A stretch of 33,940 nucleotides of DNA from an uncultured candidatus Brocadiaceae bacterium (lineage in GTDB: Bacteria; Planctomycetota; UBA1135; UBA2386): NCBI GenBank assembly GCA_964392555.1, contig CAYMRG010000002.1, positions 1 through 33,940 of the forward strand, in the 5' to 3' direction. Below, in pieces: positions 19,417 to 33,940 of this stretch. The notes beneath the pieces were generated by a model. The model saw nothing but the letters and a program-made list of their open reading frames with translations, was not told the origin of the DNA and searched no databases. The translations under genes and the position numbers were made by a program. How positions within the stretch are numbered: position 1 is the stretch's first letter; each line of letters begins with the position of its first letter.

Positions 19417-19424
19417 GGTGATCG

Positions 19425-20174: not shown

Positions 20175-20878
20175 GCGTCTCCGTCCTCGCGTCGGCGAAA
20201 CGTCCGCAGGAGTTCGCAGAAGCGCAAAAATCCACGGTAGTAGCGCGTCTTGGCGGTGTTGACGGCCATGCCGCAGCGCGCGGCGATCTCGAGGAACGTC
20301 AGTCCCTCGATGTCCTTCAGTCGGATCAGCTCCGCCTCGACGCCGCCGAGTCGGTCGAGACCCCGCACCACTTCCTCGTGGGCGCTGGATCTCGTCGCAT
20401 CGTCCGGCGCCGGGACGACCGCGTCGTCGCCGAGCGGCGTCAGCAGCTGCGCGCGCCGGGAGCGGCGGCGGACCGCGTTCAGGTACTCGAACTCGCACAG
20501 GCGGTAGATCCAGCCTTCGAGCGGGCACCACGCCTCGAATTCGTGCAGCTTGCGCAGCGCGATCAGCAGCGTGTCGTGCGTCAGGTCGAGGATCTCCTCC
20601 TCGGCCAGCTGCAGGCCGCGCCGCCGGTTCAGGGCGTGGAGGATCCGCGGCACGCAGTGCATGCGCTCCTCGAACTTCACGCGCGCCTCCCGATCACCGC
20701 CCAGCACGGCGGCGAGGAACGCCAGCTCGGCGGCGCGATCGAAGGGTTCGGGGTCGGGCAGAGGCAGCGTGGACACGGCGCGGAACCGGGCCACCGGCTC
20801 GGTCGCCACACTGTAGCGAGGCCTCGGCCGGCGCCTGGATCCGTCTCGGGTGCAAGGGTCCGAACTGGGCATGGGCAT
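20171..20878 (-). CDS. ECF-type RNA polymerase sigma-70 family factor
   Basis: Region 2-like (AEEEILDLTHDTLLIAL...EGWIYRLCEFEYLNAVRRR) and region 4 HTH (EAELIRLKDIEGLTFLEIAARCGMAVNTAKTRYYRG). The start is uncertain. ATGs occur at 20878 and 20872, a GTG lies further in, and the ORF stays open to ATG 21079. Confidence 0.8.
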   Translation of the reverse strand: MPMPSSDPCTRDGSRRRPRPRYSVATEPVARFRAVSTLPLPDPEPFDRAAELAFLAAVLGGDREARVKFEERMHCVPRILHALNRRRGLQLAEEEILDLTHDTLLIALRKLHEFEAWCPLEGWIYRLCEFEYLNAVRRRSRRAQLLTPLGDDAVVPAPDDATRSSAHEEVVRGLDRLGGVEAELIRLKDIEGLTFLEIAARCGMAVNTAKTRYYRGFLRFCELLRTFRRREDGDA

Positions 20879-21150
20879 GACGCGCTGATGGCGTGTCTGC
20901 ACCGCGTCCGGGCCACCCCGGAGGTTGCAAAAATCCGCTCGGTCAGGGCCCGGCACCCGATCCGGCCCGAGCGGCGTGGCACGGGGGCCGAAGCAGTCCT
21001 CGGCGGCGATGCGGCCGCCGACCAGCCAGACGGTCCACGGAACGTAGGGAGTTGCATTGCGGGGTCCCGCGACGCGCATTCGGCGCGCCGCCCCGAAGCG
21101 TTCCGGGCCGCTGACCCGGCCTCAGAATTCCCGCCGCAGGCCTCGCGCCG

Positions 21151-21888
21151 TCACGCGCGCGCCGACGGATCGTCGTTGCGTCGCCGCCAGTCGTCGGGCC
21201 ACGACCGCTCGCGCAACTGCCGTTCGACGACGGCGAGGTAGGCGCGCAGCTGCTTGTCGGGCTCGTCGGCGAACGTGTCGAGCGCTTCGACCACCGTCAG
21301 CCGATCGGCGCGGAACGTGCGGAAGTCGCCGCGCAGTTCGCACCAGGCGCCGAGCGTCCAGACCATGCCCCAGAAGGTCAGGCACAGCGGCCGCAGCACG
21401 CGCTCGCTCGCTTCGCCGGTCGCGTCGACGTAGCGCACGCGCAACCGCTGCCGGCCGTCGACCGCAGCGCGCACCCGTTCGATCGTCGCGCGCACATCGG
21501 GGCAGATCGCCGCCGGCACGTTGAGCTCGGCCCGCGCGAAGCCCGCCGCGAGCCGCGGCGGCACCACCAGCTCGACCTTGGCGAGCAGGCTGCGGGCGCG
21601 CGCGGCGAGCCGTTCGTCGGCGAATGCCTGCACCATGCGCGCACCGAGCACCAGCGCGTCGATCTCGCCGGCGTCGAACATCAGCGGCGGCAGGTCGAAG
21701 CCGCGCTGCAGGCAGTAGCCGACGCCGGCCTCACCTTCGATCGGCACGCCGCTGCCGATCAGGTCCTGCACGTCGCGGTAGACGGTGCGCAGGGAGATCT
21801 CGAGCTCGTCGGCGATCGCGCGCGCCGTCAGCACGCGGTTGGTGCGCAGCAGCTGGACGATCTGGAACAGTCGGTCGGCGCGGCGCAT
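21151..21888 (-). CDS. YafY-family transcriptional regulator (HTH plus WYL domain)
   Basis: The ATG at 21888 gives the typical N-terminus MRRADRLFQIVQLLR. The WYL-domain stretch reads RLRVRYVDATGEASERVLRPLCLTFWGMVWTLGAWCELRGDFRTFRADRL. The track start 21903 is a TTG. Confidence 0.9.
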   Translation of the reverse strand: MRRADRLFQIVQLLRTNRVLTARAIADELEISLRTVYRDVQDLIGSGVPIEGEAGVGYCLQRGFDLPPLMFDAGEIDALVLGARMVQAFADERLAARARSLLAKVELVVPPRLAAGFARAELNVPAAICPDVRATIERVRAAVDGRQRLRVRYVDATGEASERVLRPLCLTFWGMVWTLGAWCELRGDFRTFRADRLTVVEALDTFADEPDKQLRAYLAVVERQLRERSWPDDWRRRNDDPSARA

Positions 21889-21921
21889 GGAACCAGCCGG
21901 CAACGGTAGCGAGCGGCGCGA

Positions 21922-22425
21922 TCAGCTCCACTCGGCGACGTCGGCGGTCGGCCCGTAGGTCGGCGGCACGATCGCGCCGCACAGCCGCAGGTAGACCTGC
22001 AGCTGGCCGCGGTGCTGGATGACGTGGTTCAGCAGCGTCGTCCGCATGACCTCGTCGCGGCGCCCCTTCATCAGCTCCTGGTCGCCTTTGCGGGCCGTCC
22101 ACGTGCCGCGCATCAGCCGATCGTCGAAACCGGCCAGCGCCTCGCGCGCCGCGGCCATGTGGCGATCGAGCCCGGCGAGCAGTTCGGCCGTGGTCTTGGC
22201 GGTGAACGGCTGGTAGTCGCCCATCGCCGCGAAGTCCATCGAGTCCTCGCGCCAGGCCGGGATCCACGACGGCGCGTCGACGATGTGGCCGGCCAGCTGG
22301 CCGAGCGTCCAGGACCTGGGATGCGGGCGGAAGTCGAACTTGCCGTCCGGGATGGCGGCGAGGGTCTTGCGGGTGAGCGCGGCTTCGCGCTCGAGATCGG
22401 CGAGCAGATCGCTGGCGATGGTCAT
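21922..22425 (-). CDS. DinB-family (DinB_2-like) four-helix-bundle protein
   Basis: MTIASDLLADLEREAALTRKTLAAIPDGKFDFRPHPRSWTLGQLAGHI, 167 aa. It ends 33 nt upstream of the preferred YafY start at 21888 (18 nt from the alternative TTG start at 21903). Confidence 0.8.
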   Translation of the reverse strand: MTIASDLLADLEREAALTRKTLAAIPDGKFDFRPHPRSWTLGQLAGHIVDAPSWIPAWREDSMDFAAMGDYQPFTAKTTAELLAGLDRHMAAAREALAGFDDRLMRGTWTARKGDQELMKGRRDEVMRTTLLNHVIQHRGQLQVYLRLCGAIVPPTYGPTADVAEWS

Positions 22426-22624
22426 GGTCGTCTCTTCGTTGGGTTGCGAGCGAGGGATCGTGGCGCCCCCCTGCTGTCAGCGTGGTGGCAGCAGCCTCGC
22501 GCGAATCGCTGCGGTGTTTTGCACCGCTGCGAACGGGCGATGCCAGCGGCCGATCGCCGTCGCCACCTCGGATCTGCCTGTGGACGTTGACCCGCGCGGC
22601 CGCGGCGACCGAAATCGTCTGCGC

Positions 22625-23995
<1,371 letters not shown>

Positions 23996-24006
23996 TCGCT
24001 ACCGGA

Positions 24007-24031
24007 GCGCGATCGGCGATCCGATCAGCGC
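24007..24031 (+). terminator. hairpin 12 nt after the amt stop
   Basis: gcgcgatcgg (24007-24016) pairs with ccgatc-a-gcgc (24021-24031) with one bulge and a 4-nt loop. A second small hairpin, cacaacc-aaa-ggttgtg, follows. There is no U-tract. Confidence 0.3.
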
Positions 24032-24115
24032 GTCCTGCGGCCACAACCAAAGGTTGTGCGGCGCTGCGCGCCGCCAGAAGAGGCCGCAGGGGCGCTGCGG
24101 TCTCCAGGGGCGACT

Positions 24116-24173
24116 ACTACTCCCGCTCGCCAACGGCGAATCCGCTCGCCAGGCGAGGAAACGCGGGAGTAGT
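24116..24173. other. 58-nt inverted-repeat element able to fold as a three-way junction
   Basis: A perfect 11-bp outer stem, actactcccgc (24116-24126) with gcgggagtagt (24163-24173), encloses two small hairpins. These are tcgcc-aac-ggcga (24127-24139) and ctcg-ccagg-cgag (24145-24157). The element ends 17 nt before ATG 24190. Confidence 0.3.
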
Positions 24174-24189
24174 CGATCAGCGATCCTTG

Positions 24190-24930
24190 ATGTACCACCG
24201 GCCGTCGACCAGCTTGAGCTTCAGCTCGCTCGGTCCCTCGCCACTCGTGTTTGCCCACGAGACCTGGTCACGCGCCTCGTTCCAGGTAGGCTCCCGCTTC
24301 GCCTACGTGACGTGGGACGCCGTCTTCGACTACGGCACCACCACGCCGGAGACGATGCAGTACCAGTTCGACCTCGCGACCGGCGTCGTGACGATGATCT
24401 GGCAGAGCATCACCGGCCAGGGCAACGACTACCTGGTCGGCTTCTCGCCGGGCGGCCCGTCGATCGACCCGGGCTCGACGGACCTCTCCGTCACCCTGCC
24501 GACCACGATCCTGCTCGGCGCGGACTACCAGGCGCTCACCCTGTCGGCCTCGCCGGTGGCGATCTCCACGGCGACCTCCGGTTCGACCGTCACCTACACC
24601 ACCGACAACATGCTGGCCTTCGCGCCGGGCGTCTACATCGGCATGAACATCCTCAGCATGTCGCAGATCCCGGCTCCGGGCGTCGACCTCGTGATCATCG
24701 GCGCGCCGGGTTGCGCGGCGCTGGTCGGCTCGATCGACCTGCCCCAGACGATGGTCGGCACCACCCCGACGCAGTCGGTCAGCCTGACGCTGCCGCCGGG
24801 CATCCCGGCCGGCACGACGATCTACTCGCAGTCGGTGTCGCTGTTCCAGCCGAACACCCTCCCGGGCGGTCTGAACAGCTTCGGCATGACCACCAGCAAC
24901 GGCATCGCCTCGGTCATCAGCACCCACTGA
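24190..24930 (+). CDS. 5'-truncated paralogue of the protease C-terminal surface module (possible gene remnant or pseudogene)
   Basis: The 246-aa ORF aligns by eye with residues ~791-1007 of the S8 protease: NDYLVGFSPGGPSIDPGST vs GNYLVGFSKANASDPGST, IIGAPGCAALVGSID vs FLGMPTCTLYESLD, and TTSNGIASVI vs LTSNGLRLQI. It has no signal peptide and no SD. GC3 is poor for the first ~30 codons and gene-like from ~24290 onward. Confidence 0.6.
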   Translation: MYHRPSTSLSFSSLGPSPLVFAHETWSRASFQVGSRFAYVTWDAVFDYGTTTPETMQYQFDLATGVVTMIWQSITGQGNDYLVGFSPGGPSIDPGSTDLSVTLPTTILLGADYQALTLSASPVAISTATSGSTVTYTTDNMLAFAPGVYIGMNILSMSQIPAPGVDLVIIGAPGCAALVGSIDLPQTMVGTTPTQSVSLTLPPGIPAGTTIYSQSVSLFQPNTLPGGLNSFGMTTSNGIASVISTH

Positions 24931-24973
24931 TCCGATTCGCCGATCGCGCGACCCACGGGTCGCGCCTGCCGAC

Positions 24974-25016
24974 GGGCCGCGCGCGGACACTCCGCGCGCG
25001 GCCCGCGGTCGTTTCT
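24974..25016 (+). terminator. strong GC hairpin followed by a U-containing tract
   Basis: A perfect 14-bp stem, gggccgcgcgcgga (24974-24987) with tccgcgcgcggccc (24991-25004) and loop cac, is followed by gcggtcgtttct. Flanking hairpins lie at 24946-24965 and 25018-25033. Confidence 0.5.
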
Positions 25017-25110
25017 GGGGCCGAAAACGGCCCGCTGCGCCCCGACGCCTGGAGCCGGCCCGCTGCCGCGACTACGCTGGCCCGCCCACGACGTCCCGCG
25101 GAGCCCAGCC

Positions 25111-26454
25111 TTGTCAGCCACGACCTCTCCGTACTGGAACCCCAAGACCGAGACCCTCGCCAAGGAGCAGCTGCGGGCCCTGCAGCTGCACAAGCTGCAA
25201 CGGCTCGTCGAACGCGCCTGGCACGAATCACCGTTCCACCGCCGGCTCTACGAAGGGGCGGGCGTGACACCGGACAAGATCCGCACGCTCGACGACATCC
25301 GCCGCCTGCCGTTCATGACGCGTGAGGAGTGGATGGCGAACCAGGCGGAGAAGCCGCTGTTCGGCGACCTGATCACGCGCCCCGAGTCGGATGCGATCCG
25401 TTACCACCTGACGTCGGGCACCTCCGGCCGCCAGCCGCTGCGGGTGCTCGACTCGCGCAAGGACTGGTCGTGGATCACCGACATGTGGTGCTACGGCTTC
25501 TGGGGCTTCGGCATCCGGCCGACGGACAGAGTGTTCTTCGCCTTCAGCTACGGCTCGTTCATCGGCTTCTGGGGTGCCCACTATTGCTGCGAGAAGCTCG
25601 GCTGCCTGACGCTCGCGTCCGGCAACATGACCACCGAGCAGCGAGTCAAGCAGATCGTCGAGATGGGTGTCACGGTCGTCTGCGCGACGCCGACCTATGC
25701 GCTGCGCATGGGCCAGACCGCCGAGAAGATGGGTATCGACCTGCTGCGCGACGGCAAGGTACGCCGCGTCGTCGTCAGCGGCGAACCGGCCGGTTCGATC
25801 CCCGCGGTCAAGAAGATGATCGAGGACATGTGGGGCGGCAAGTGCGGCGACACCGCCGGCATGACGGAGATCGGCACGATCATGATCTTCGAATGCGACC
25901 ACCAGCCGGGTGGTCCGCACATCATCGAGGACCACTTCATCGAGGAAGTGCTCGACCCCGACAGCGGCCAGCCGGTCGGCTACGGCGAACGCGGCGAACG
26001 CGTCGTGACGTCGTTCGGCCGCGGCTTCATCCCGCTGCTGCGCTACCGCACCAAGGACCTCGTCTGCAAGGTGCCGCACACGCGCTGCACGTGCGGCCGC
26101 ACCGGCGACATCTACGAGGGCGGCATCCTCGGTCGCGTCGACGACATGAAGCTGATCCGCGGCACCAACGTCTACCCGCGCGCCGTCGAGGCGGTGGTCC
26201 GCGAACACGGCCAGGTCGAGGAGTTCCAGATCGTCATCACGCGCGTCGACAACGTGCAGGACGAGATCACCGTCAAGATCGAGCTGAAGCCCGACCAGCA
26301 GGACTGCTGGCCGCGGCTGCAGGCGCTGCTCGGCAAGGACCTGGCCGACGCGCACGAGGGCCTGCGCTTCAACCTCGAGCTGGCGAAGCCCGGCGAACTG
26401 CCGCGCTTCGAGCTGAAGGCCAAACGCCTGCAGGACCTGCGCCCGCAATACTGA
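25111..26454 (+). CDS. phenylacetate-CoA ligase (PaaK)-family adenylate-forming enzyme
   Basis: TTG start. The N-terminus YWNPKTETLAKEQLRALQLHKLQRLVERAWHESPFHRRLYEGAGV is typical of PaaK-like proteins. Motifs TSGTSGRQP, SGEPA and GMTE are present, about 447 aa. Confidence 0.85.
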   Translation: MSATTSPYWNPKTETLAKEQLRALQLHKLQRLVERAWHESPFHRRLYEGAGVTPDKIRTLDDIRRLPFMTREEWMANQAEKPLFGDLITRPESDAIRYHLTSGTSGRQPLRVLDSRKDWSWITDMWCYGFWGFGIRPTDRVFFAFSYGSFIGFWGAHYCCEKLGCLTLASGNMTTEQRVKQIVEMGVTVVCATPTYALRMGQTAEKMGIDLLRDGKVRRVVVSGEPAGSIPAVKKMIEDMWGGKCGDTAGMTEIGTIMIFECDHQPGGPHIIEDHFIEEVLDPDSGQPVGYGERGERVVTSFGRGFIPLLRYRTKDLVCKVPHTRCTCGRTGDIYEGGILGRVDDMKLIRGTNVYPRAVEAVVREHGQVEEFQIVITRVDNVQDEITVKIELKPDQQDCWPRLQALLGKDLADAHEGLRFNLELAKPGELPRFELKAKRLQDLRPQY

Positions 26455-26472
26455 TCGTTCGCGAGGATCACC

Positions 26473-26679
26473 ATGACGCACCCCGACACCGATCTGCTCG
26501 GCCGCCTGATGACCAAGGACGAGCGTGAGCTGCGCGAGCTCTACGTGCGGCTCAAGGCGCTCAGCGCGCGCGACGACCTGCCGCCGGTGATGAGCGCCAA
26601 CTGCAAGCAGGCCATGGTCCTGCTGTGGAACGCCTGCAACGACCTCGCCCTGATCGGCGAGGAGCCGGGCTGCGACTGA
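26473..26679 (+). CDS. small (68 aa) helical hypothetical protein
   Basis: ATG with a GAGGA SD 5 nt upstream, 18 nt after the ligase stop. GC3 is high. No family recognised. Confidence 0.6.
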   Translation: MTHPDTDLLGRLMTKDERELRELYVRLKALSARDDLPPVMSANCKQAMVLLWNACNDLALIGEEPGCD

Positions 26680-26705
26680 ACGCCTTCCGTGCGCCCCGGG
26701 AAGCC

Positions 26706-28181
26706 ATGCTGACCACGACCCTGACGATCGCGCTGTTCCTCTGTCCGCAGGAGCCGCCGAGGCCCCACCGCCCGCCGAACGTCGTCTTCGTGATGGCCGA
26801 CGACCTCGGCTACGGCGAACTCGGCTGCTTCGGCCAGCAGAAGATCGCGACGCCGCACCTCGACGCGCTGGCACGCGAGGGCATGCGGCTGACGCACCAC
26901 TACGCGGGCTCGCCGGTCTGCGCGCCGTCGCGCTGCGTGCTGATGACCGGCAAGCATCCGGGACACGCCGCGGTGCGCGACAACAAGGAGGCCCAGCCCG
27001 AAGGCCAGTGGCCATTGCCGGCCGGCGAGACGACGCTCGGCGAAGTGCTGCACGGCGCGGGCTTCCACACCGGCGCGTTCGGCAAATGGGGCCTCGGGCC
27101 GTTCGGTTCGAGCGGCGATCCGCTGACGCGCGGCTTCGATCGCTTCTACGGCTACAACTGCCAGCGCCACGCGCATAGCTACTGGCCGGCGTTCCTCTAC
27201 GACGACAGCAGGCGCGTGCCGCTGCACAACGACCCCGCCGTGCCCGGCGGCGGCAAGCTGCGCGACGGCGAGGATCCGAACGATCCCGCGAGCTACGCGC
27301 GCTTCGTCGGCAAGGACTACGCACCCGACCACATCCGCGACGCGGCGCTCGCGTTCCTCATCACGCACAAGGACGAACCGTTCTTCCTCTACTACCCGTC
27401 GACGCTGCCGCACCTGGCGCTGCACGCGCCGGCCGACGAGGTGCAGCCGTACCTCGGCAAGTTCGAGGAGACGCCCTACACCGGCAAGAACGGCTACACG
27501 CCGACGCCGACACCCCGCGCGGTCTACGCGGCGATGATCACGCGCCTCGACAAGGAGGTCGGCGCGCTCGTCGAGGTGCTCGATGAATTGGGTCTGCGCG
27601 AGAACACGATCGTCGTCTTCACCTCCGACAATGGCGCGACGCACAGCCCGGTCGGCGGCACCGACTGCGACTTCTTCGCTTCGTGCGGCGAACTGCGCGG
27701 CCGCAAGGGTTCGATGTACGAGGGCGGCATCCGCGTGCCCGCGATCGTGCGCTGGCCCGGCCATGTCGCACCGGGCAGCGAGAGCGCGCGTGTGACCGGT
27801 TTCGAGGACTGGCTGCCGACGCTCGCCGAGCTGTGCGGCGCCAAGGTCCCCGCCGGCGTCGACGGCATCAGCTTCGCCCCGACCTTGCGCGGCGAACCGC
27901 AGGAGCCCCGGCCGTTCCTGTATCGCGAGTTCGCCGGCTACGGCGGCTGGCAGGCCGTGTGGGTCGGCGACTGGAAGCTCGTGCGCCACGACCTGCAGAA
28001 GGCGAAGCCCGTGACCGAGCTGTTCGACCTCGCCCACGACGTCGCCGAGTCGCGCGACCAGCTGGGCGAGGAGGGCAAGCGGGCGGCCGAACTGGGCGCG
28101 ATCCTCGCGCGCGAGCACGTCGAATCGGCGACGTTCCCGCTGCTGGCGATCGACGGCAAGCCAGGCGAAGAGGAGCGGTGA
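26706..28181 (+). CDS. Cys-type sulfatase (arylsulfatase A / GALNS-like)
   Basis: An internal ATG at 26706. Motifs PNVVFVMADDLGYGELGCFG and the formylglycine motif SPVCAPSRCVLMTGK (C-x-P-x-R) are present, along with FTSDNG and GGIRVP. Confidence 0.9.
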   Translation: MLTTTLTIALFLCPQEPPRPHRPPNVVFVMADDLGYGELGCFGQQKIATPHLDALAREGMRLTHHYAGSPVCAPSRCVLMTGKHPGHAAVRDNKEAQPEGQWPLPAGETTLGEVLHGAGFHTGAFGKWGLGPFGSSGDPLTRGFDRFYGYNCQRHAHSYWPAFLYDDSRRVPLHNDPAVPGGGKLRDGEDPNDPASYARFVGKDYAPDHIRDAALAFLITHKDEPFFLYYPSTLPHLALHAPADEVQPYLGKFEETPYTGKNGYTPTPTPRAVYAAMITRLDKEVGALVEVLDELGLRENTIVVFTSDNGATHSPVGGTDCDFFASCGELRGRKGSMYEGGIRVPAIVRWPGHVAPGSESARVTGFEDWLPTLAELCGAKVPAGVDGISFAPTLRGEPQEPRPFLYREFAGYGGWQAVWVGDWKLVRHDLQKAKPVTELFDLAHDVAESRDQLGEEGKRAAELGAILAREHVESATFPLLAIDGKPGEEER

Positions 28182-28316
28182 CCCGAGTGCGCCGCTTTCG
28201 CCGCCCTGCGGCGTCGGGCTCCCTGCAGCGTGCTCGGCGGGGCTACGGCCCCGCCTCCGCGCGCTTCGGTCGCCCTCCTTGCCGGACGACGAAATCGACG
28301 CACTCGGTCGCGGCCC

Positions 28317-28520
28317 ATGCGCGAAATGGGGGGCTCGCAGGGCATCTCCCAGGGTGCCGCCGAAGCGCGCCGCGACATGCTCCGCACCCTGATGACCGAG
28401 CGTTTCGGGCCGTTGCCAGCGGCGGTCGAGGCCCGGCTCGCCAAGGCCACCCCGGACATGCTGGCGACGTGGACGCAGCGACTCCTGTCGGCGCCGACGT
28501 CCGACGACGTGGTCGCGTAG
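28317..28520 (+). CDS. stand-alone DUF4351-like small protein (C-terminal module of Rpn/YhgA-type nuclease-transposase-like proteins)
   Basis: An internal ATG gives a 67-aa protein with ...RRDMLRTLMTERFGPLPAAVEARLAKATPDMLATWTQRLLSAPTSDDV. This matches my recollection of the DUF4351 pattern (RFG.LP......L......L..W...L..A.SL). No PD-(D/E)XK nuclease part lies upstream. Confidence 0.55.
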   Translation: MREMGGSQGISQGAAEARRDMLRTLMTERFGPLPAAVEARLAKATPDMLATWTQRLLSAPTSDDVVA

Positions 28521-28588
28521 GAATTCCATCGGCCGGCTCGCCACCGATCCCGCGGCCGCGGCATGGATACCATGCCTGACCGGCCGCG

Positions 28589-31042
28589 ATGAACCAGGAC
28601 CTCCCCAGCGAACTGCACCGCCACGCCAGCGCCCTGCGCAGCCTGGCGCGCGAGCTGCTGCGGTGTCCGCACGCGGCCGACGACGTCACCCAGGCGACGT
28701 TGCACCAGGCATTGGCGCGACCGGATCTGCGCCCGGGGCCGCTGGGCGGCTGGCTGCAACGCACGCTGGTCAACTTCGCCCGGCAGTGGCGACGCGGCGA
28801 ACGGCGCCGCGCGGCGCGGCATGCCGCGCTCGCGGCTCCCGAATCCGATGCCGAGCCCCGCGACGCCCTGGCGCGCCGCGAAGCGCTGCGTTCCGTGACG
28901 AACGCGGTGCTGTCGCTCGACGAGCCCTACCAGACGGCGATCTTCCTCCGCTACTTCGAAGACCTGCCGCCGCGCGTGATCGCGCAGCGCACCGGCGCCA
29001 ACCTCGCGACCGTCAAGTCGCGGCTCGCGCGCGGGCTCGCGATGCTGCGCGTCCGCCTCGACAGCGATCAGGGCGAAGGCACCAGATCCGACCGCGGCCG
29101 ACGCGCCGACTGGCGGCTCGGCCTCGCCGCAACCTTCGGCCTCGGCCTGCCGACCTCCGCCGCCGCCGGCCTCACCCTGACCACCGGAGCATGGCTCGTG
29201 GGAACGACCGTCAAGACCTTCGCTGCCGCCGGCGCCCTGCTGGCCGGCGGTGTCCTCTACTACGTGCTCGCGAACGACACCGCGCCCGAACCGTCGCGCC
29301 ACGTGACCCACGATGGCACCGCGGCCGCGGCCGAGCGCGTCAGCGCGGAGGCCAGCGCGCCCGCCACCGCCCCCGAGCGCGAGCAGGTCACCGCGAACGT
29401 CACCGCCAGCGCCTCGTGGCTCGACCACCCGTTCCCGTTCGTCCTCGAGGTCGCCGTCGTCGACGACCTCGGCCTGCCGGTGGCGAACCACTCGATACGC
29501 CTGTCCCCCGACGGCTGCGCGCTCGACAACCCCGAAAGATCGACCGACGCCGATGGTCGGCTGACCCTGCAGTGGCGCGGGCGCACCGGCCGTTGCCGGG
29601 TCGCGATCGAGGACGGCAACGAACGGCTGTGGCGGCTCGAGCTGACCAGTGGCGAAACCGCGCACCTGACGCTGGGCACGCCACCGCAGGGCGACGGGCA
29701 ACCGATCCGGTTGACGTTCACGACGGTGAAGAACACCTTGGCCGGTGCGCCGGCGGGTGAACCGGTCGTCCGCTCGGGCTTGCCCGTGGTCGGCCGGATG
29801 TTCCGCAGCGGCGGCCTGGCGATGCACGCCGGCCTGCATCCGTTCGCGCAATTCACCGACAACGCCGGGCGCAGCGTCGAGGCCGAGGCGAGCGCTTCGG
29901 GTCCGGAACTGGTCCTGAAGGGTGGGTCGTTCACGATCAACCTCGGCAACGACAACTCGCGCACCCTGTTCACGTCCTACCGGGATGTGATCGGATCCGC
30001 ATCGGCCACGCCGCAAGCCGCGCCAACCACGGCGATCGCCGGCACCGTGTTCGGCGAGGACGGCAAGCCCGCGGCCAAGGTGAAGGTGGTCGTGTTCGGC
30101 GAATCGCCGCAACCGATCGCTCGCACGGAGACCGACGAACACGGCGAGTTCCGCGTCACCGGGCTCGCCGCCGGCACCTTCCGCGTGCGCGCCGGTGGTG
30201 GCCCCGAAGGGCTCGCGACCACCAGCGTCCCGGTGACGACCGGCACCACGCCGGCGACGCTGCAGCTGCAGCGCGGCGCGTGCGTGCGCGGCCACGTCGT
30301 CGACGGTGACGGCAAGCCGATCGCCAACGCGCGGCTCGTGTGGCAGAGCCTCGACCAGCAGTCGTGGGACGCCACGAGCAGCGGCGACGACGGCGCGTTC
30401 TGCTTCGCCAACCAGCCGGGCGGCCCCGGCCGCGTGCTGTGCTGGCCCGGCGACGAAGCCCAGCTGCCGCTCGCGCAGGCGCAATCCGTGCTGCCGGACA
30501 CCGGCGACCTGCGGCTCGTCTGCGACACCGCGCACGGCGGCGCGCTGACGCTCACCGCGAATGCGCCGCTGGGCCTCGACGGTCGGCCACAGGTGCGCGT
30601 CTGGCAGCTCGACACCGGCGCCAGCACCGTCGTGCCGTTCGCCCAGAAGGCCAAGAACTGGCGCCTCGAACACCTCCCGGCCGGCTGGTACGAAGTAGAG
30701 GTCCGCGCCCCCGGCCTCGGCTTCGTCGCCGCCGGCCGGCACTATGTCGACGGGCAGGGCACCACCGACCTCGGCGCGATCGAGCTGCCGGCACCCGGCC
30801 TCATCCGCTTCGATCTGGCGAAGGCGGCGCTGCCCGACGAGGGCCGGCAATTCGACGTCTGCGCGCTGCGCAAGGACATGGACGTCCACCTGCTGCTCGA
30901 CGACGACTTCCCGACCAAGCCGCTGCAGATGCCGGCCGGCAGCTACGTGGTCTCTTGGCTGCGCCGCGACGGCACGACCGCGCATCGGCGCTTCGACGTC
31001 GTCGCCGGCGAAACCAGGACGATCGCGATCGGCACCGAGTAG
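28589..31042 (+). CDS. ECF sigma factor fused via membrane segment(s) to a ~580-aa extracytoplasmic domain with CarboxypepD_reg-like repeats
   Basis: Residues 1-165 carry sigma region 2 (AADDVTQATLHQAL...WLQRTLVNFARQWRR) and region 4 (LDEPYQTAIFLRYFEDLPPRVIAQRTGANLATVKSRLARGL). A hydrophobic stretch follows (TFAAAGALLAGGVLYYVLA). Then come repeats such as IAGTVFGEDGKPAAKVKVVVF...TDEHGEFRVTGLAAGTFRV and VRGHVVDGDGKPIANARLVW...DDGAFCF. It is a single uninterrupted ORF with high GC3. Confidence 0.8.
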   Translation: MNQDLPSELHRHASALRSLARELLRCPHAADDVTQATLHQALARPDLRPGPLGGWLQRTLVNFARQWRRGERRRAARHAALAAPESDAEPRDALARREALRSVTNAVLSLDEPYQTAIFLRYFEDLPPRVIAQRTGANLATVKSRLARGLAMLRVRLDSDQGEGTRSDRGRRADWRLGLAATFGLGLPTSAAAGLTLTTGAWLVGTTVKTFAAAGALLAGGVLYYVLANDTAPEPSRHVTHDGTAAAAERVSAEASAPATAPEREQVTANVTASASWLDHPFPFVLEVAVVDDLGLPVANHSIRLSPDGCALDNPERSTDADGRLTLQWRGRTGRCRVAIEDGNERLWRLELTSGETAHLTLGTPPQGDGQPIRLTFTTVKNTLAGAPAGEPVVRSGLPVVGRMFRSGGLAMHAGLHPFAQFTDNAGRSVEAEASASGPELVLKGGSFTINLGNDNSRTLFTSYRDVIGSASATPQAAPTTAIAGTVFGEDGKPAAKVKVVVFGESPQPIARTETDEHGEFRVTGLAAGTFRVRAGGGPEGLATTSVPVTTGTTPATLQLQRGACVRGHVVDGDGKPIANARLVWQSLDQQSWDATSSGDDGAFCFANQPGGPGRVLCWPGDEAQLPLAQAQSVLPDTGDLRLVCDTAHGGALTLTANAPLGLDGRPQVRVWQLDTGASTVVPFAQKAKNWRLEHLPAGWYEVEVRAPGLGFVAAGRHYVDGQGTTDLGAIELPAPGLIRFDLAKAALPDEGRQFDVCALRKDMDVHLLLDDDFPTKPLQMPAGSYVVSWLRRDGTTAHRRFDVVAGETRTIAIGTE

Positions 31043-31078
31043 CCACGCCGGCGCGAGCGCGTATGCTCGCCCGCGCCC

Positions 31079-31462
31079 ATGGATTCCCCCCGCACCGCAC
31101 TTGCCCGCAACGTGCTCGGCACCGCGCTGAAGGAGTGCGGCATGCGGCCGTTGACGGGGTTCTTCCGCGACGGCTGCTGCAACACCGACGGCACGGACCT
31201 CGGCGCCCACACCGTCTGTGCCGAGATGACCGCCGAGTTCCTCGCGTTCTCGAAGAACGCCGGCAACGACCTGTCGACGCCGCGGCCGGAGTTCGGCTTC
31301 CCGGGGCTGGCGCCTGGCGATCGCTGGTGCCTGTGCGCGTCGCGCTGGGTCGAAGCGCTCGACGCCGACAGCGCGCCGCGCGTGGTGCTCGAGGCGACGC
31401 ACGAACGAACCCTCGAATACGTGCCGCTGGCGATCCTGCAGCGCCACGCGATCCCGGGGTGA
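31079..31462 (+). CDS. DUF2237 family protein
   Basis: PLTGFFRDGCCNTDGTDLGAHTVCAEMTAEFLAFSKNAGNDLSTPRPEFGFPGLAPGDRWCLCASRW matches the conserved DUF2237 core as I recall it, 127 aa. Confidence 0.8.
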   Translation: MDSPRTALARNVLGTALKECGMRPLTGFFRDGCCNTDGTDLGAHTVCAEMTAEFLAFSKNAGNDLSTPRPEFGFPGLAPGDRWCLCASRWVEALDADSAPRVVLEATHERTLEYVPLAILQRHAIPG

Positions 31463-31470
31463 CCTCGCCG

Positions 31471-31534
31471 GCCAGGAAACCAGTTCGCCAGGAAACCAGT
31501 TCGCCAGGAAGCCAGTTCGCCAGGAAGCCAGTTC
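31471..31534. repeat. 16-bp tandem repeat x4 (GCCAGGAARCCAGTTC) between convergent genes
   Basis: Copies lie at 31471-86, 31487-502, 31503-18 and 31519-34. Copies 1-2 have A and copies 3-4 have G at position 9. CCAG recurs every 8 bp. A degenerate fifth unit runs into the stop codon region of the gene ending at 31536. Confidence 0.9.
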
Positions 31535-31535
31535 G

Positions 31536-32318
31536 TCAGTGCACCAGCTCGCAGGCCTCGTAGACCGGGCCTTCCATGCAGGTGCGCGAGTACGGCCAGT
31601 TCTTGAAGCGCGGGCCCTGCACCTTCACCGTGCAGCCGTTGCAGACGCCGTAGCCGCAGGCCATGTAGGTCTCGAGGCTGAGGAAGCAGCGCAGGCCGCG
31701 CTGTTCGCACAGCTTCGCCACGGCGTGCATCATCGGATCGGGCCCGCAGCAGAACACGACCTCGCCGCGGGCGACTTCGCCGCGCGCGATCAGCTCGTCG
31801 AGCAGCGCGGTGACCATGCCGCGGAACCCGTGGCTGCCGTCGTCGGTCGACGCGAACACGCGCGCGACGTCGGCGAAGTCGTCGATGCCGGCCAGCGCCG
31901 CCTTGCTGCGCCCGCCGAACAGCAGGCGCGGCTTGCGGCCGTTCGCCGCCATGCCGCGCGCCAGCAGCAGGAACGGCGCGAGGCCGACACCGCCGGCGAC
32001 GCAGATCGGATCCGCGACGTCGCGCGGAAACGGCCGGCCGAGCGGGCCGTTGAGCACGATGCCCTCACCGGGGCGCTGGTCGCACAGCGCGCGCGAACCT
32101 TCGCCGACCGGCTTGATCAGGAAGCTGCCCCACGAGCCGTCGGCGGCGCGGTCGTAGAGCGAGAACGGCCGCGGCAACTGGACCGGCCAGCGCCGCTCGG
32201 TGCGCAGCATGAAGAACTGCCCCGGCTCGGTGGCCGGGACCGGGCCCTCGACCTCGAGGGCGAACGAGCCGCCGCCGAGGTCGCGGCAGCGGCGCAGCGC
32301 GTGGACGCGAGTCTGCAT
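31536..32318 (-). CDS. PyrK-like FAD/NAD(P)-binding oxidoreductase with a C-terminal 2Fe-2S motif
   Basis: GQFFMLR, RPFSL, VAGGVGLAPF and the C-terminal CGYGVCNGC...C pattern are typical of the dihydroorotate dehydrogenase electron-transfer subunit family. There is no pyrD next to it. Confidence 0.8.
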   Translation of the reverse strand: MQTRVHALRRCRDLGGGSFALEVEGPVPATEPGQFFMLRTERRWPVQLPRPFSLYDRAADGSWGSFLIKPVGEGSRALCDQRPGEGIVLNGPLGRPFPRDVADPICVAGGVGLAPFLLLARGMAANGRKPRLLFGGRSKAALAGIDDFADVARVFASTDDGSHGFRGMVTALLDELIARGEVARGEVVFCCGPDPMMHAVAKLCEQRGLRCFLSLETYMACGYGVCNGCTVKVQGPRFKNWPYSRTCMEGPVYEACELVH

Positions 32319-32366
32319 GGTCGGCGCGCAGCATACGGGCGCTGCGTCCAGGACGCGACCGATCGC

Positions 32367-33323
32367 TCAGCGGCCGTGGCCGACGGCGGCGCGCGCGCCA
32401 CCGACCACCTGGGGCACCGGTGCCCGCAGCACGACGATCGGGATCTCGGGCGGCGCGTCGATGCGCAGCGGCAGGAAGGTCATGCCGACGCCCCGGCCGA
32501 CATAGAGGCGGCAGCCGTTCTCGGCGAACCAGCCGCGTTCGTAGCCGAACCTGCTGTGGTGCAGCGGCGCATGGCCGGCGATGCGGACCTGGCCGCCGTG
32601 CGTGTGGCCGGCAAGCGTGAGATCGACATCGACCGCCGCGGCCTCGAAGAAGAAGTCCGGATGGTGGCTCAGCAGGATCGCCGGTTCGCCGTCGCGCCGG
32701 CCGCCGAGCGCCTGCGCGAGATCGGGCGTGCCCTCGGTCAGATCGTCGACGCCGCACAACCACAGCGAGGCGCCCGCATGCTCGATGCGCCGCCCGGCAT
32801 TGAGCAGCACCTCGACGCCGTGGTCGCGCAGGAACGCGCTCCACAGCCCCAGATCCTTGCCCCAGAAGTGATCGTGGTTGCCGGGCACCGCGAACATGCC
32901 GAGCCGCGGCCGCAGCAGCTGCAGCGGCTCGCGGAACAGCAGGATCTCCCGGTCCCGCGTGTTGACGAGGTCGCCACCGAACAGCACGAGGTCGGGTTCC
33001 GCGGCGGCGATCCGCGCGAAGATCGCCGTCAGATCGCGGGCGTCCATGAAGCTGCCGGCGTGGACGTCCGAGACGAACGCGAGGCGCAGGCCGTCGAGCG
33101 CTTCGGCGCCGGGACGCAGCGTGATCTCGAGTTCGGGCAGGTCGAGGCTGCGCTGCGCGCGGCGGTGCAGCCAACGCCCGACCGGCAGCAGGTCGATGCC
33201 GCGGTTGCAGGTCGCCGTCAGCACCGAGACGAGTCGCCGCAGCGTCGTCCGCGGCCCGCTCAGCGGCCCCGTCGGCAACGGCGCACGCCGCGGCCGTCTG
33301 CCCGCTGGCTGGTCGGCGTTCAT
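32367..33323 (-). CDS. metallophosphoesterase (YaeI-like)
   Basis: The internal ATG at 33323 overlaps the upstream stop (ATGA). Motifs SDVHAG, GGDLV, PGNHDH, LSHHP and GHTHGGQ are present. Confidence 0.85.
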   Translation of the reverse strand: MNADQPAGRRPRRAPLPTGPLSGPRTTLRRLVSVLTATCNRGIDLLPVGRWLHRRAQRSLDLPELEITLRPGAEALDGLRLAFVSDVHAGSFMDARDLTAIFARIAAAEPDLVLFGGDLVNTRDREILLFREPLQLLRPRLGMFAVPGNHDHFWGKDLGLWSAFLRDHGVEVLLNAGRRIEHAGASLWLCGVDDLTEGTPDLAQALGGRRDGEPAILLSHHPDFFFEAAAVDVDLTLAGHTHGGQVRIAGHAPLHHSRFGYERGWFAENGCRLYVGRGVGMTFLPLRIDAPPEIPIVVLRAPVPQVVGGARAAVGHGR

Positions 33324-33940
33324 CGCGCGGCGACCGGTGCCGCGCCGCCCAGCTGCAGCTTGTTGAACAGCGTGCGCACGCCGATGCCGAGCATCTCGGC
33401 GGTCTTCGTGCGGTTGCCGCCGCAGGCGGCCAGTGTCCGCTGCACGAGTTCGCGTTCGACATCGTCGAGCGACCGCCCGACCAGCCCGTCGATCGGATCG
33501 CGGGCCGGCAGCACGCAGGTCGGCTCGACCGCGAGCGCGCCGGCATCGGGGCCGAGCCAGCGCCGCACGAGTTCGGCCGTGATCACGCCGTCCTCGCACA
33601 GCAGGCCGACGCGCTGCACGACGTTCTGCAGCTCGCGGACGTTGCCGGGCCAGCCCCAGGCCTGCAGCACCGCCTCGGCCTCATCGCTGAGCGTCGCACC
33701 GGCGCGCAGGAAGTGGCGCGCCAACGGCACGATCTCCGCGCGCCGCTCGCGCAGCGGCGGCAGCACGATCGGCACGACGTCGAGACGGTAGAACAGGTCC
33801 TGACGGAACCGTCCTTCGCCGACCGCGGCCACGAGGTCGCGGTTGGTCGCCGCGACGATGCGGACATCGACGCGCACCGTGCGGTTGCCGCCGACGCGCT
33901 CGAACTCGCCTTCCTGCAGCACGCGCAGCAGCTTGCTCTG
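33320..33940 (-). CDS. sigma54-dependent Fis-family transcriptional activator, C-terminal part (runs off the right edge)
   Basis: The reading frame is open to the window end: QSKLLRVLQEGEFERVGGNRTVRVDVRIVAATNRDL...FRQDLFYRL...WPGNVRELQNVV, then the Fis-type HTH GNRTKTAEMLGIGVRTLFNKL. Confidence 0.9.
   Translation of the reverse strand, partial: QSKLLRVLQEGEFERVGGNRTVRVDVRIVAATNRDLVAAVGEGRFRQDLFYRLDVVPIVLPPLRERRAEIVPLARHFLRAGATLSDEAEAVLQAWGWPGNVRELQNVVQRVGLLCEDGVITAELVRRWLGPDAGALAVEPTCVLPARDPIDGLVGRSLDDVERELVQRTLAACGGNRTKTAEMLGIGVRTLFNKLQLGGAAPVAAR

Follow-up and report, generated by a model that had tools for sequence, protein, structure and literature searches.

The window analyzed here, which is the whole stretch of 33,940 nt from contig CAYMRG010000002.1, derives from a fragmented Planctomycetota MAG (875 contigs, genome 69% complete). 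At 28589..31042 (+) it contains the full-length gene of an 817-aa protein, in which a sigma factor, a linker, a transmembrane (TM) helix and an ectodomain follow each other, as delineated by the ORF, Pfam, NCBIfam, homologues and an AF2 model. The single ORF with a coding signature that was noticed in a preliminary description of this DNA is the longest frame at this position (GC3 0.91, GC2 0.55). The upstream neighbor encodes an exported sulfatase (26625-28181), and a DUF2237 gene (31079..31462, +; Pfam DUF2237, 185 bits) begins 36 nt 3' of the fusion gene on the same strand. Neither neighbor is anti-sigma-like, in agreement with the earlier remark that no anti-sigma gene is adjacent, and the sigma/anti-sigma/CHAT cassette mentioned for another part of the window is present at 16918-21079. 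No TonB-dependent receptor was found among the Pfam-scanned ORFs of the window, which include every ORF from 15309 to 33599. A sigma-54 activator gene is located near the fusion gene. DUF2237 lies downstream of the fusion in 27 of 28 loci with neighbor matches, the sulfatase is kept in 19 of these 28, and the gap between fusion gene and DUF2237 is 12-87 nt in 22 of the 28 loci measured. No terminator was found between the two genes, and read-through from the fusion gene into DUF2237 is possible. The idea that DUF2237 is the operon output is weakened by its own -10-like element, TATGCT at 31062-31067; a TAnnnT-like element recurs 10-30 nt 5' of the DUF2237 ATG in most of the loci measured. DUF2237 therefore apparently has its own promoter, and even a one-gene operon output is uncertain. 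None of the solved structures of the DUF2237 family carries a functional name.

The fusion is a genuine single polypeptide, with about 95 full-length homologue clusters (757-870 aa, 99-100% coverage), and the orthologues are almost always encoded as one gene, so that the proposed search for split orthologues came out in favor of the fusion. Twenty-seven orthologous loci from Planctomycetota MAGs were examined, most of which show the order sulfatase, fusion, DUF2237. It could be argued that a sigma gene and the gene of an exported repeat protein were joined by an assembly or frameshift error, as the window comes from a MAG of so many contigs and gene calls without the sigma part occur in a few cases (P0115-P0118, P0120). 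However, the same unbroken architecture is found in all 27 independently assembled loci, single-contig genomes among them, and the sigma-less calls that were traced, P0115-P0118, can be explained: in L012 the contig ends, in L011 the sigma part has been deleted, and L013 carries a deletion as well as a frameshift. A stand-alone 171-aa sigma factor near L013 is unrelated (31% identity). The probability of such an artefact is thus negligible. The neighboring genes are 65-90% identical, whereas the fusion reaches only 37-48%, with 57-77% in the sigma module and 36-42% in the ectodomain. The fusion is the syntenic orthologue present in some members of a single family of uncultured Planctomycetota. 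The survey that had been suggested for this type of fusion found the sigma-linker-TM module in 124 clusters (E<1e-30), nearly all of 600-1200 aa and with the TM helix aligned. All nine sampled family members contain sigma r2, r4 and CarboxypepD_reg, and about 10 paralogues, all long, are present in this genome. The homologues named to phylum all come from Planctomycetota MAGs, a few further records being designated just "bacterium". Among the papers searched, none links CarboxypepD_reg to ECF sigma factors, and the sigma-linker-TM-CarboxypepD_reg family is large and experimentally untouched.

Residues 5-160 are a complete ECF sigma factor comprising sigma2 and sigma4. Both regions, which had already been noticed in the N-terminal part, score above the Pfam cut-offs: Sigma70_r2 at residues 10-74 with 31.6 bits (cut-off 24) and Sigma70_r4_2 at residues 101-153 with 40.4 bits (cut-off 25.7). 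Furthermore, the NCBIfam model sigma70-ECF (TIGR02937) matches with 53 bits against a cut-off of 42.9. Sigma regions 1 and 3 have no Pfam match in the 817-aa protein, and the presence of regions 2 and 4 together with the absence of 1.1 and 3 places it in group 4. The module can be aligned to SigE, SigK and SigH of M. tuberculosis. Region 2 (residues 5-80; 28601..28828, +) is defined by Pfam, the SigE alignment, AF2 helices at 5-24, 27-43 and 52-80, and the invariant residues D32, Q35, W55 and L56, and region 4 (residues 90-160; 28856..29068, +) by the Pfam match at 101-153 and the invariant residues E112, P113, Q115, R121, T141, K143, S144 and R148. No Cys is among the invariant or >=90% conserved columns of residues 1-170, and Cys26, present in the 817-aa protein, is not conserved.

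Sigma region 4 is followed by a conserved linker of 47 aa (residues 161-207; 29069..29209, +), recognizable in the alignment and by its low AF2 pLDDT. W175 is invariant and R176, G184, L185 and G200 are near-invariant; W175 is even retained in about 90% of 108 distant family members. The linker contains neither a Cys/His motif nor any conserved Cys or His, no anti-sigma family (zf-HC2, RskA and FecR included) matches the 817-aa protein in Pfam at E<=1, and 47 residues are too short for an anti-sigma domain. The single TM helix (residues 208-228; 29210..29272, +) is predicted to run N-in/C-out on the basis of AF2, hydrophobicity and the flanks in the family. The hydrophobic segment is as claimed before, with the best window at 210-228 (TFAAAGALLAGGVLYYVLA, mean Kyte-Doolittle 1.72), and the topology check yielded one TM helix, 208-228 being the only long helix after sigma4 in the AF2 model. 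Family-wide, the outer flank is acidic, with 2.06 D/E versus 0.24 inside, and K209 is conserved at the helix. A two-TM topology, which would leave the repeats in the cytoplasm, was rejected: the segment 177-205 has low hydrophobicity and many conserved Thr, Gly and Pro residues, AF2 shows two short low-confidence helices there and one long helix overall, and in 84 of 108 family members a strong hydrophobic segment occurs exactly once. The TM helix is Gly/Ala-rich and includes a conserved AGG. On its outer side follows a disordered Ala/Pro/Glu-rich juxtamembrane stretch (residues 229-271; 29273..29401, +; pLDDT 32-41, variable in the alignment), which may be a region for site-1 cleavage. Substrates of regulated intramembrane proteolysis (RIP, with RseA-like logic) are expected to combine an N-in single pass, a helix-destabilizing TM segment and a site-2 protease in the genome. 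The topology and the Gly/Ala-rich helix of the fusion would fit a possible RIP substrate. An RseP-like 740-aa open frame with a split Peptidase_M50 domain is located on contig C432, but M50 proteases are universal and present in 14/14 control genomes.

The ectodomain is predicted to be an outward-facing rod of five Ig-like beta-sandwiches, one of them Big_1-like and four CarboxypepD_reg-like. At least three repeats of the G.V.D..G.P...TD..G.F type had been described, and they can be read from the translation at about 285-329, 483-527 and 565-606. The first beta-sandwich (residues 274-363, Big_1/MG4-like), together with the loops and the strand that follow it, occupies 29408..30031 (+; Pfam, AF2). 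The Big_1/MG4 match covers residues 274-329 (Pfam Big_1, 38.8 bits), and AF2 pLDDT is >90 for residues 282-363 and 410-430. In the same region two long variable loops (373-407 and 434-476) enclose a conserved strand, GLHPFAxF (415-424), of which H417, P418, A420 and F422 are conserved in >=90% of the aligned sequences. The remaining four beta-sandwiches, CarboxypepD_reg/prealbumin-like, are located at residues 482-559, 561-658, 668-743 and 755-814 (30032..31030, +; Pfam, AF2, Foldseek), with AF2 pLDDT of 89-97 and two stretches from residue 483 matching Pfam CarboxypepD_reg at 80.4 bits (cut-off 32.3). The structure search recommended earlier for the beta-rich part gave pilins, adhesins, alpha-2-macroglobulins and teneurin TTR domains as the best Foldseek matches. 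As a clue to a ligand these were discarded, for only generic pilin, adhesin and macroglobulin beta-sandwich strings matched. WD40 repeats have no Pfam match at E<=1, and AF2 shows beta-sandwiches and no propeller. The main proposal of the preliminary description, a membrane-tethered ECF sigma factor with a large beta-rich ectodomain, is therefore upheld by the sigma domains, the one TM helix and the extracytoplasmic-type folds.

A putative internal translation start signal (29186..29200, +), which emerged from codon conservation, lies where the soluble domain has ended and the TM helix is about to begin. It consists of the SD-like GGAG at 29186-29189, an 8-nt spacer and GTG at 29198-29200 (codon 204). 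Gly200 is encoded by GGA in 23 of 24 orthologues versus a GGA usage of 7.7%, and in a within-gene control 29 other conserved Gly columns are GGC-dominated. Codon 204 is ATG, GTG or TTG in 26/27 orthologues and thereby ranks second among 56 M/V/L columns, after the annotated start (median 13%). The predicted second product is a sigma-less anchored protein of 614 aa, beginning shortly before the TM helix with GTTVK. No SD is found before the ATG at 28589, and the RNA fold at the internal SD is not unusual (z -0.7). The element could instead be a pause site, at which GGAG-N8-NTG stalls ribosomes before the TM helix for sigma folding or SRP engagement and only one protein is made. This would suit its position exactly between soluble domain and TM helix and the frequent GGA also at codon 205 (12/23). 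However, codon 204 is almost always capable of serving as a start, which a pause would not require; all three Leu at this position use the rare TTG (6.5% usage), and the natural sigma-less gene of locus L011, which has lost its sigma part, begins at exactly codon 204. A mere pause is for these reasons quite improbable. Among the paralogues the SD-plus-start arrangement occurs in 23 of 45 loci; since about half of them are without it, it is not essential to the architecture.

Upstream of the gene we describe a second new element, a bipartite ECF-type promoter-like motif of 32 nt (GCCACCGATCCCGCGGCCGCGGCATGGATACC; 28540..28571, +), which ends 17 nt 5' of the ATG. It is composed of a -35-like GCCACC (28540-28545), a 17-nt spacer and a -10-like ATGGATA (28563-28569), and it aligns without gaps in 27/27 orthologous loci (37 bits), the surrounding intergenic DNA being unalignable. 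A conserved, group-specific promoter motif in front of the sigma gene is what autoregulated ECF sigma factors are expected to have. This genome was scanned by PWM, mismatch and relaxed regex and complete relatives by the strict pattern. In this assembly the motif is the sole site, with 40.2 bits by PWM and 15.6 bits for the next best, and it is single-copy by the exact pattern in relatives of 6.6 Mb and 7.2 Mb. A second exact match in genome G005 was dismissed as a target because it lies inside a long ORF, and on contig C100 a site with two mismatches, in front of the gene of an exported M16 peptidase, is not distinguishable from chance. Because the motif occurs once per genome, it is likely that the sigma part recognizes its own promoter and other targets are undetectable, although a genome of only 69% completeness may lack some of them. 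At the family level, GCATCC is found upstream in 27 of 50 paralogous loci (chance 1.6/50), and 25 aligned paralogue upstream regions have the form TGCATCC-N11-CGCGGGGTGnTAC in a classical -35/17-nt/-10 geometry. The common ECF promoter consensus is GGAAC/CGT, which the -35 and -10 of the motif do not resemble, and the motif could be the site of another regulator. A sigma-54 promoter was rejected, as the GG/GC spacing does not fit by eye and the downstream half is not conserved, and so was an RNA element, for which there was no Rfam match and no conserved hairpin, the palindrome in the spacer occurring in the window alone.

The regulon search bears directly on the view that the protein is a classical one-component envelope sensor, whose ectodomain binds an external ligand, e.g., a sulfated glycan, and releases the sigma factor for a missed regulon elsewhere, with GGAG and NTG being incidental or a pause. 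In favor of this, ECF52/SCO4117, which has a carbohydrate-binding domain, shows a comparable architecture (PMC5826349, PMC8999054), most orthologous loci have the gene of an exported sulfatase immediately upstream, the ectodomain changes rapidly in evolution, as is often the case in sensors, and the incomplete genome may hide targets. However, no second site was found either with the relaxed patterns here or with the exact pattern in the two relatives, and the motif is absent upstream of the sulfatase gene. Moreover, the entire neighborhood is syntenic, including unrelated genes, and therefore the adjacency of the sulfatase has little functional weight. Pfam and Foldseek detected no carbohydrate-binding family in the ectodomain, only generic Ig-like folds, and the conserved synonymous sites at the GGA and NTG codons would be left in need of explanation. 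We therefore regard an envelope sensor of this kind as rather unlikely.

Taken as a whole, the data are best explained by an autoregulated, two-product, tethered sigma factor that is released by proteolysis, to which we assign a probability of roughly 0.5. The gene would be transcribed from its own ECF-type promoter at 28540-28571, recognized by the sigma part, which would amount to positive autoregulation. As suggested by the synonymous-site conservation, one mRNA would yield two proteins, the full-length sigma-tethered form, weakly initiated at the SD-less ATG 28589, and the sigma-less form from GTG 29198 behind the conserved GGAG, which would share the TM helix and the ectodomain. The tethered sigma factor would be kept from productive holoenzyme formation. 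After clipping or perturbation of the ectodomain, the Gly/Ala-rich TM helix would be cut by a site-2 protease, and the freed sigma factor would cause re-expression of the gene. The release step is modeled on IutY and ECF52. Both proteolytic release and membrane-proximal transcription had been raised in the preliminary description, and both are viable mechanisms. In the latter case the sigma factor would never be released, recruit RNA polymerase core at the membrane, where ToxR, TcpP and CadC also act, and transcribe DNA lying there, chiefly its own gene, held there by co-translational insertion. With about 47 residues, the linker from sigma4 to the TM helix would give enough reach, there is no anti-sigma domain that would have to be destroyed, and the sole detectable promoter belongs to the gene of a membrane protein. 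However, we know of no sigma factor that acts in the membrane-bound state, the TM helix with its conserved Gly-rich stretch (AGG) may resemble the substrate of an intramembrane protease, and the characterized hybrid IutY requires cleavage by Prc and RseP (PMC8999054). A permanently tethered and active sigma factor thus appears unlikely.

Within the preferred reading of an autoregulated and proteolytically released sigma factor, no second promoter of the same type is detectable, and therefore the system has the appearance of a loop in which an envelope product is surveyed and renewed by its own gene. The earlier proposal that the repeat domain would be the sensor is complicated by the predicted internal start, the sigma-less relatives and the sole detectable promoter at its own gene, which together suggest that the ectodomain may serve as output no less than as sensor. 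In the fullest form of this idea, which we put forward tentatively and as doubtful in its entirety, most ribosomes would start at the SD-led codon 204, and the resulting untagged, membrane-anchored rods would be the main envelope product. A minority of ribosomes would start at the SD-less ATG and give sigma-tagged rods interspersed with the untagged ones. Upon clipping, unfolding or turnover of the rods the tagged copies would be processed in the membrane, so that the sigma factor fires its own sole promoter and both products are replaced. If this were true, sensor, transducer, regulator and sole output would all reside in one ORF.

Usually, a separate anti-sigma protein governs the activity of an ECF sigma factor. 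In the present fusion family the sigma factor itself is apparently the membrane-tethered substrate, with no anti-sigma domain, and the family is very large in uncultured Planctomycetota. If the once-per-genome promoter and the internal start both hold, the gene would be a minimal one-gene feedback device and an unusually clean system for studying how tethering alone silences a sigma factor; moreover, the compact sigma factor and its cognate promoter would be candidate orthogonal genetic parts. If both predictions fail, the protein would be an ordinary member of the known ECF class with built-in extensions.

The ECF52 type, which the preliminary description had named as an example of membrane-spanning fusions, is no match. 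Members of ECF52 are actinobacterial and carry, between sigma4 and the membrane, an anti-sigma domain of the zinc-finger type (PMC8999054, PMC5826349), whereas the fusion is planctomycetal, with about 47 residues between sigma4 and the TM helix and no Cys/His motif. SCO4117 of Streptomyces coelicolor, which belongs to ECF52 (PMC8999054), is, like ECF48/ECF53, similar to the fusion in that a sigma factor is joined via TM helices to a large external domain and proteolytic activation is proposed (PMC5826349, PMC8999054). ECF52 combines the ZAS (HxxxCxxC) with a Pro-rich region and, on the outside, a domain of the carbohydrate-binding or glycosyl-hydrolase kind, none of which is found in the fusion protein, whose ectodomain matches only Big_1- and CarboxypepD_reg-type families. 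ECF57 (formerly ECF01-Gob) is likewise planctomycetal, with long variable C-terminal extensions (PMC7671368), and is multi-copy, at 5.3 copies per planctomycetal genome according to Casas-Pastor et al. (PMC7826278). As hallmarks of ECF57, WD40-like repeats have been described along with a pair of conserved cysteines, one in sigma2 and one in sigma4, that link the two regions (PMC8999054). With respect to these described hallmarks the fusion family differs from ECF57: its repeats are of the CarboxypepD_reg type, WD40 has no match, and residues 1-170 contain no conserved Cys. IutY of Pseudomonas putida (ECF243) also combines an N-terminal ECF sigma factor, one TM helix and an extracytoplasmic C-terminal domain in one polypeptide. 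It has, in addition, a FecR-type anti-sigma and periplasmic domain, a TonB-dependent receptor as partner and a role in iron signaling, and is activated by regulated intramembrane proteolysis in which Prc and RseP release the sigma factor (PMC8999054). The fusion differs from IutY by its Ig-like rod, the lack of a FecR/anti-sigma domain and of a receptor gene nearby, and its different phylum.

An internal in-frame SD and start that give a short C-terminal product are established for SpaO/YscQ, CheA-L/CheA-S, ClpB and IF2. None of the cases known to us includes a sigma factor, or a signal-anchor helix common to both products. The fusion would differ from genes of the SpaO/YscQ type in both respects, its internal start being predicted from comparative codon evidence. 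The membrane-bound one-component winged-helix activators ToxR, TcpP and CadC work while tethered. They resemble the fusion in that one TM helix connects a DNA-directed component of transcription to a sensor domain in the periplasm; in contrast to these winged-helix activators, the tethered component here is a sigma subunit that needs RNA polymerase core.

The fusion of sigma, linker, TM helix and ectodomain is encoded by the longest frame at its locus (28589..31042, +), which shares its coding signature with the other window genes (GC3 0.91, with a G+C content of ~70% across the whole window) and yields the 817-aa product P0001. Pfam places Sigma70_r2 at residues 10-74 and Sigma70_r4_2 at 101-153, both above the cut-off, followed by a Big_1/MG4-like stretch (274-329) and two CarboxypepD_reg stretches from residue 483. 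Sigma regions 2 and 4 align with those of M. tuberculosis SigE, and the ECF superfamily model is the sole NCBIfam model past the cut-off, which no named subfamily passes. No anti-sigma family has a Pfam match in P0001 at E<=1, and the flanking genes encode an exported sulfatase and a DUF2237 protein. Since the ORF, Pfam, hydrophobicity and neighbor checks agree, all elements of the preliminary description are confirmed, namely a single 817-aa ORF with coding signature, N-terminal sigma regions 2 and 4, a TM segment, which is the most hydrophobic 19-residue window of the protein (210-228), a beta-rich repeat part and the absence of a separate anti-sigma gene beside the fusion.

In an AlphaFold2 model from a 55-sequence alignment (mean pLDDT 79), the sigma2 helices (residues 5-80) and sigma4 helices (90-160) are followed by two short low-confidence helices (168-182, 190-197), one long helix that is the TM helix (208-228) and a disordered stretch (229-271). 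The conserved strand GLHPFAxF (415-424), which is flanked by two long variable loops, completes the first beta-sandwich (282-363), and four more beta-sandwiches (482-559, 561-658, 668-743, 755-814) are modeled with a pLDDT of 89-97. Foldseek matches only strings of Ig-like domains of extracellular proteins, i.e., pilins, adhesins, alpha-2-macroglobulin and teneurin TTR. Among 108 distant family members, 84 have exactly one strongly hydrophobic segment, and the outer flank of the TM helix is acidic (2.06 D/E versus 0.24 on the inner flank); K209 stands before the helix of P0001. The predicted topology therefore has the sigma on the inner and the repeats on the outer side of the membrane. Between sigma4 and the helix runs a 47-residue linker, in which W175 is invariant and R176, G184, L185 and G200 are near-invariant; it contains no Zn-finger motif, and a class I anti-sigma domain would not fit into its length. 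Comparative sequence evidence demonstrates that the sigma is intact, that there is a single TM helix and, in the predicted topology, that the Ig-like domains are external.

Comparison of homologs also establishes that the fusion is one gene. Among 5.8 billion proteins searched, ~95 full-length clusters were found (757-870 aa, 99-100% query coverage, 32-62% identity); those with a name come from Planctomycetota MAGs. In GTDB species genomes, 298 loci encode a relative. The sulfatase is kept in 19 and DUF2237 in 27 of the 28 loci with neighbor matches, and a PyrK-like DHOD-B, a metallophosphoesterase and an opposite-strand sigma-54 activator are also kept at many of them. The neighboring genes are 65-90% identical to those of the window, whereas the fusion reaches just 37-48%, with 57-77% in the sigma-linker-TM module and 36-42% in the ectodomain. 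Within the GTDB set, 9 of 24 other genomes of the same family, each of a different genus, and one of 16 elsewhere in the order have an ortholog. A fusion artifact, of which the few sigma-less gene calls could be a sign, was considered and rejected: L012 meets the end of a contig, L011 has cleanly lost the sigma part, and L013 is a remnant with a deletion and a frameshift. The natural sigma-less version L011:1593-3419 begins at an internal start codon, 92 nt downstream of the end of a glycosyltransferase gene. In L013:2761-4617, also a natural sigma-less version, the sigma-coding part is deleted and a frameshift precedes the ectodomain, whereas the TM-coding segment is retained together with the -10 block GGCATGAATACC. 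Between this remnant and DUF2237, genes for an unrelated stand-alone 171-aa ECF sigma and then a 497-aa LRR protein are inserted (L013:4661-6666, -), which may be a different sigma/sensor pair.

The start codon was located for 27 orthologous loci, and the only upstream DNA that can be aligned among them is a gap-free 32-nt block ending ~17-30 nt before that codon, in the window GCCACCGATCCCGCGGCCGCGGCATGGATACC (28540-28571). Both halves of the block are conserved and its middle varies; its information content is 37 bits. When the genome assembly (69% complete) was scanned with a PWM, the self site scored 40.2 bits and the next best 15.6 bits, and scans with 3 mismatches or a relaxed pattern gave no excess of further copies in this genome over reversed-pattern controls. 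A 6.6-Mb single-contig relative and a 7.2-Mb chromosome each have the exact pattern at the ortholog and nowhere else; an extra match in one other genome is internal to a long ORF. The comparison hence reveals a unique and conserved promoter-like motif. Upstream of paralogs in other genomes, GCATCC is found within 110 nt in 27 of 50 loci (1.6 by chance, two in the reverse-strand control), and in the common paralog motif TGCATCC-N11-CGCGGGGTGnTAC, a 17-nt spacer separates a -35 hexamer from the -10 GTGnTA. ECF autoregulation is, as standard, predicted from a conserved group-specific bipartite motif before the sigma gene (PMC7826278), and on this basis we infer that the 32-nt block is the predicted own promoter of the fusion's sigma. 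No sigma-70-type promoter or terminator was found in 28100-31700, no Rfam family matches at the locus, and no SD precedes ATG 28589. The best non-self match, GCATCCGATCCTCATCCGGGCGCATGGCTC on another contig of the MAG (C100:10410-10439, +), has two mismatches and is indistinguishable from chance; a gene for an exported M16 (HxxEH) peptidase follows ~150 nt downstream, and the site is flanked by the direct repeat ATCTTGGGGCAGGCAGG(G/A)AC. A classical ligand sensor with a regulon that escapes these scans would be a rival explanation. Since no second target is detectable, we favor a loop that would mainly report on and replenish its own product.

A second conserved element lies just before the TM helix. 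The window reads ACC GGA GCA TGG CTC GTG GGA ACG, i.e., GGAG (29186-29189), 8 nt and then codon 204 (GTG), after which come GTTVK and the helix. The Gly200 codon is GGA in 23 of 24 orthologs, with GGA making up 7.7% of the Gly codons in these genes, and in each of the 29 other columns of conserved Gly the codons are mixed, with GGC dominant; as this control uses the same sequences, shared ancestry is removed as an explanation. Codon 204 is ATG (15), GTG (8) or TTG (3) in 26 of 27 orthologs, and Leu at this position is encoded by TTG in all three cases, although TTG accounts for 6.5% of Leu codons. Among 56 columns with >=85% M/V/L, its NTG fraction is second after the annotated start (median 13%). 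Furthermore, an SD-like sequence with an in-frame NTG at most 10 codons before the TM helix is present in 23 of 45 paralog loci (background 10.6% per NTG codon), and the sigma-less gene of L011 starts at the codon equivalent to 204. No unusual RNA fold was found at the internal SD and start. Across the orthologs, these comparisons demonstrate a selected internal SD and start codon. The element could alternatively be a pause site instead of a start. On the synonymous-site, NTG, paralog and L011 evidence, however, the mRNA would also yield a predicted sigma-less protein of 614 aa that shares the signal-anchor helix and ectodomain of the full-length one. The sequence after the helix is Pro-rich (consensus DPxP), which argues against signal-peptidase cleavage.

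In the scheme that we predict, from promoter recognition and the second product to topology and proteolytic release, the sigma would recognize the 32-nt motif as the promoter of its own gene, from which two products would be made, the SD-led short one probably being the more abundant. While tethered, the sigma would be inactive; its activation would require clipping of the ectodomain and cleavage of the Gly/Ala-rich helix by a site-2 protease. The MAG has a gene for an RseP-like M50 protease on contig C432, and IutY, which is released via Prc and RseP, is a precedent for proteolytic release (PMC8999054). In a rival explanation to such release, the sigma works while still tethered.

The fusion belongs to a wider family. 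With residues 1-240 as query against 1.84 billion cluster representatives, 124 sigma-linker-TM clusters were found at E<1e-30, nearly all of 600-1200 aa and with alignments reaching through the TM helix; sigma r2, r4 and CarboxypepD_reg are present in 9/9 sampled clusters. The window's MAG (5.7 Mb, 69% complete) encodes ~44 ECF-like sigmas, ~10 of which have the sigma-linker-TM module and then 400-1100 more residues. Many ECFs with long, diverse C-terminal extensions are already on record in Planctomycetes (PMC7826278, PMC7671368), as is ECF duplication with new extensions (PMC7671368); the sigma-CarboxypepD_reg architecture is not described in the literature searched. More distant long sigma-TM paralogs in the window's MAG, on contigs C30, C44, C238, C123, C259 and C188, have a different upstream motif of the GGAATC/GGATTC(n)GGTCAC/GGTGAC type, 40-90 nt before their starts, which is probably a second promoter class of another family subgroup.

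Downstream of the fusion, the spacer to DUF2237 (31043-31078; equivalents in L012-L055) is 12-87 nt long in 22 of 28 loci. In most of these a -10-like hexamer (TATGCT, TAGCAT, TATAGT, TAACAT; in the window TATGCT at 31062-31067) recurs 10-30 nt before the DUF2237 ATG, which suggests that DUF2237 is transcribed from a promoter of its own, with a very short leader. Upstream, the small ORF 28230-28520 between sulfatase and fusion has an alignable counterpart in L018 only, among 12 orthologous loci displayed; it appears to have been inserted upstream of the conserved promoter motif and not to belong to the sigma system. Elsewhere in the window, the overlapping genes of the cassette 16918-21079 (-) encode an ECF sigma (20171-21079), a CHAT protease (16918-19581) and a membrane anti-sigma (~19425-20180), which has a TM helix and whose N-terminus is C..H...CxxC-like; this cassette resembles a split form of the DdvA/DdvS system (PMC11506125).

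Among known systems, the sigma/anti-sigma hybrids (IutY of ECF243, ECF52, ECF48 and ECF53) are those that the fusion would resemble in how it works. However, their defining FecR or ZAS domain is absent from it, and its phylum and ectodomain differ from theirs. ECF57, with a mean of 5.3 copies per genome (PMC7826278), has phylum, copy number and long extensions in common with the fusion's family, whereas its described WD40-like repeats and two conserved cysteines (PMC8999054) are absent here. The lack of an anti-sigma domain, a predicted self promoter occurring once per genome and a predicted internal start appear to be features not described before.
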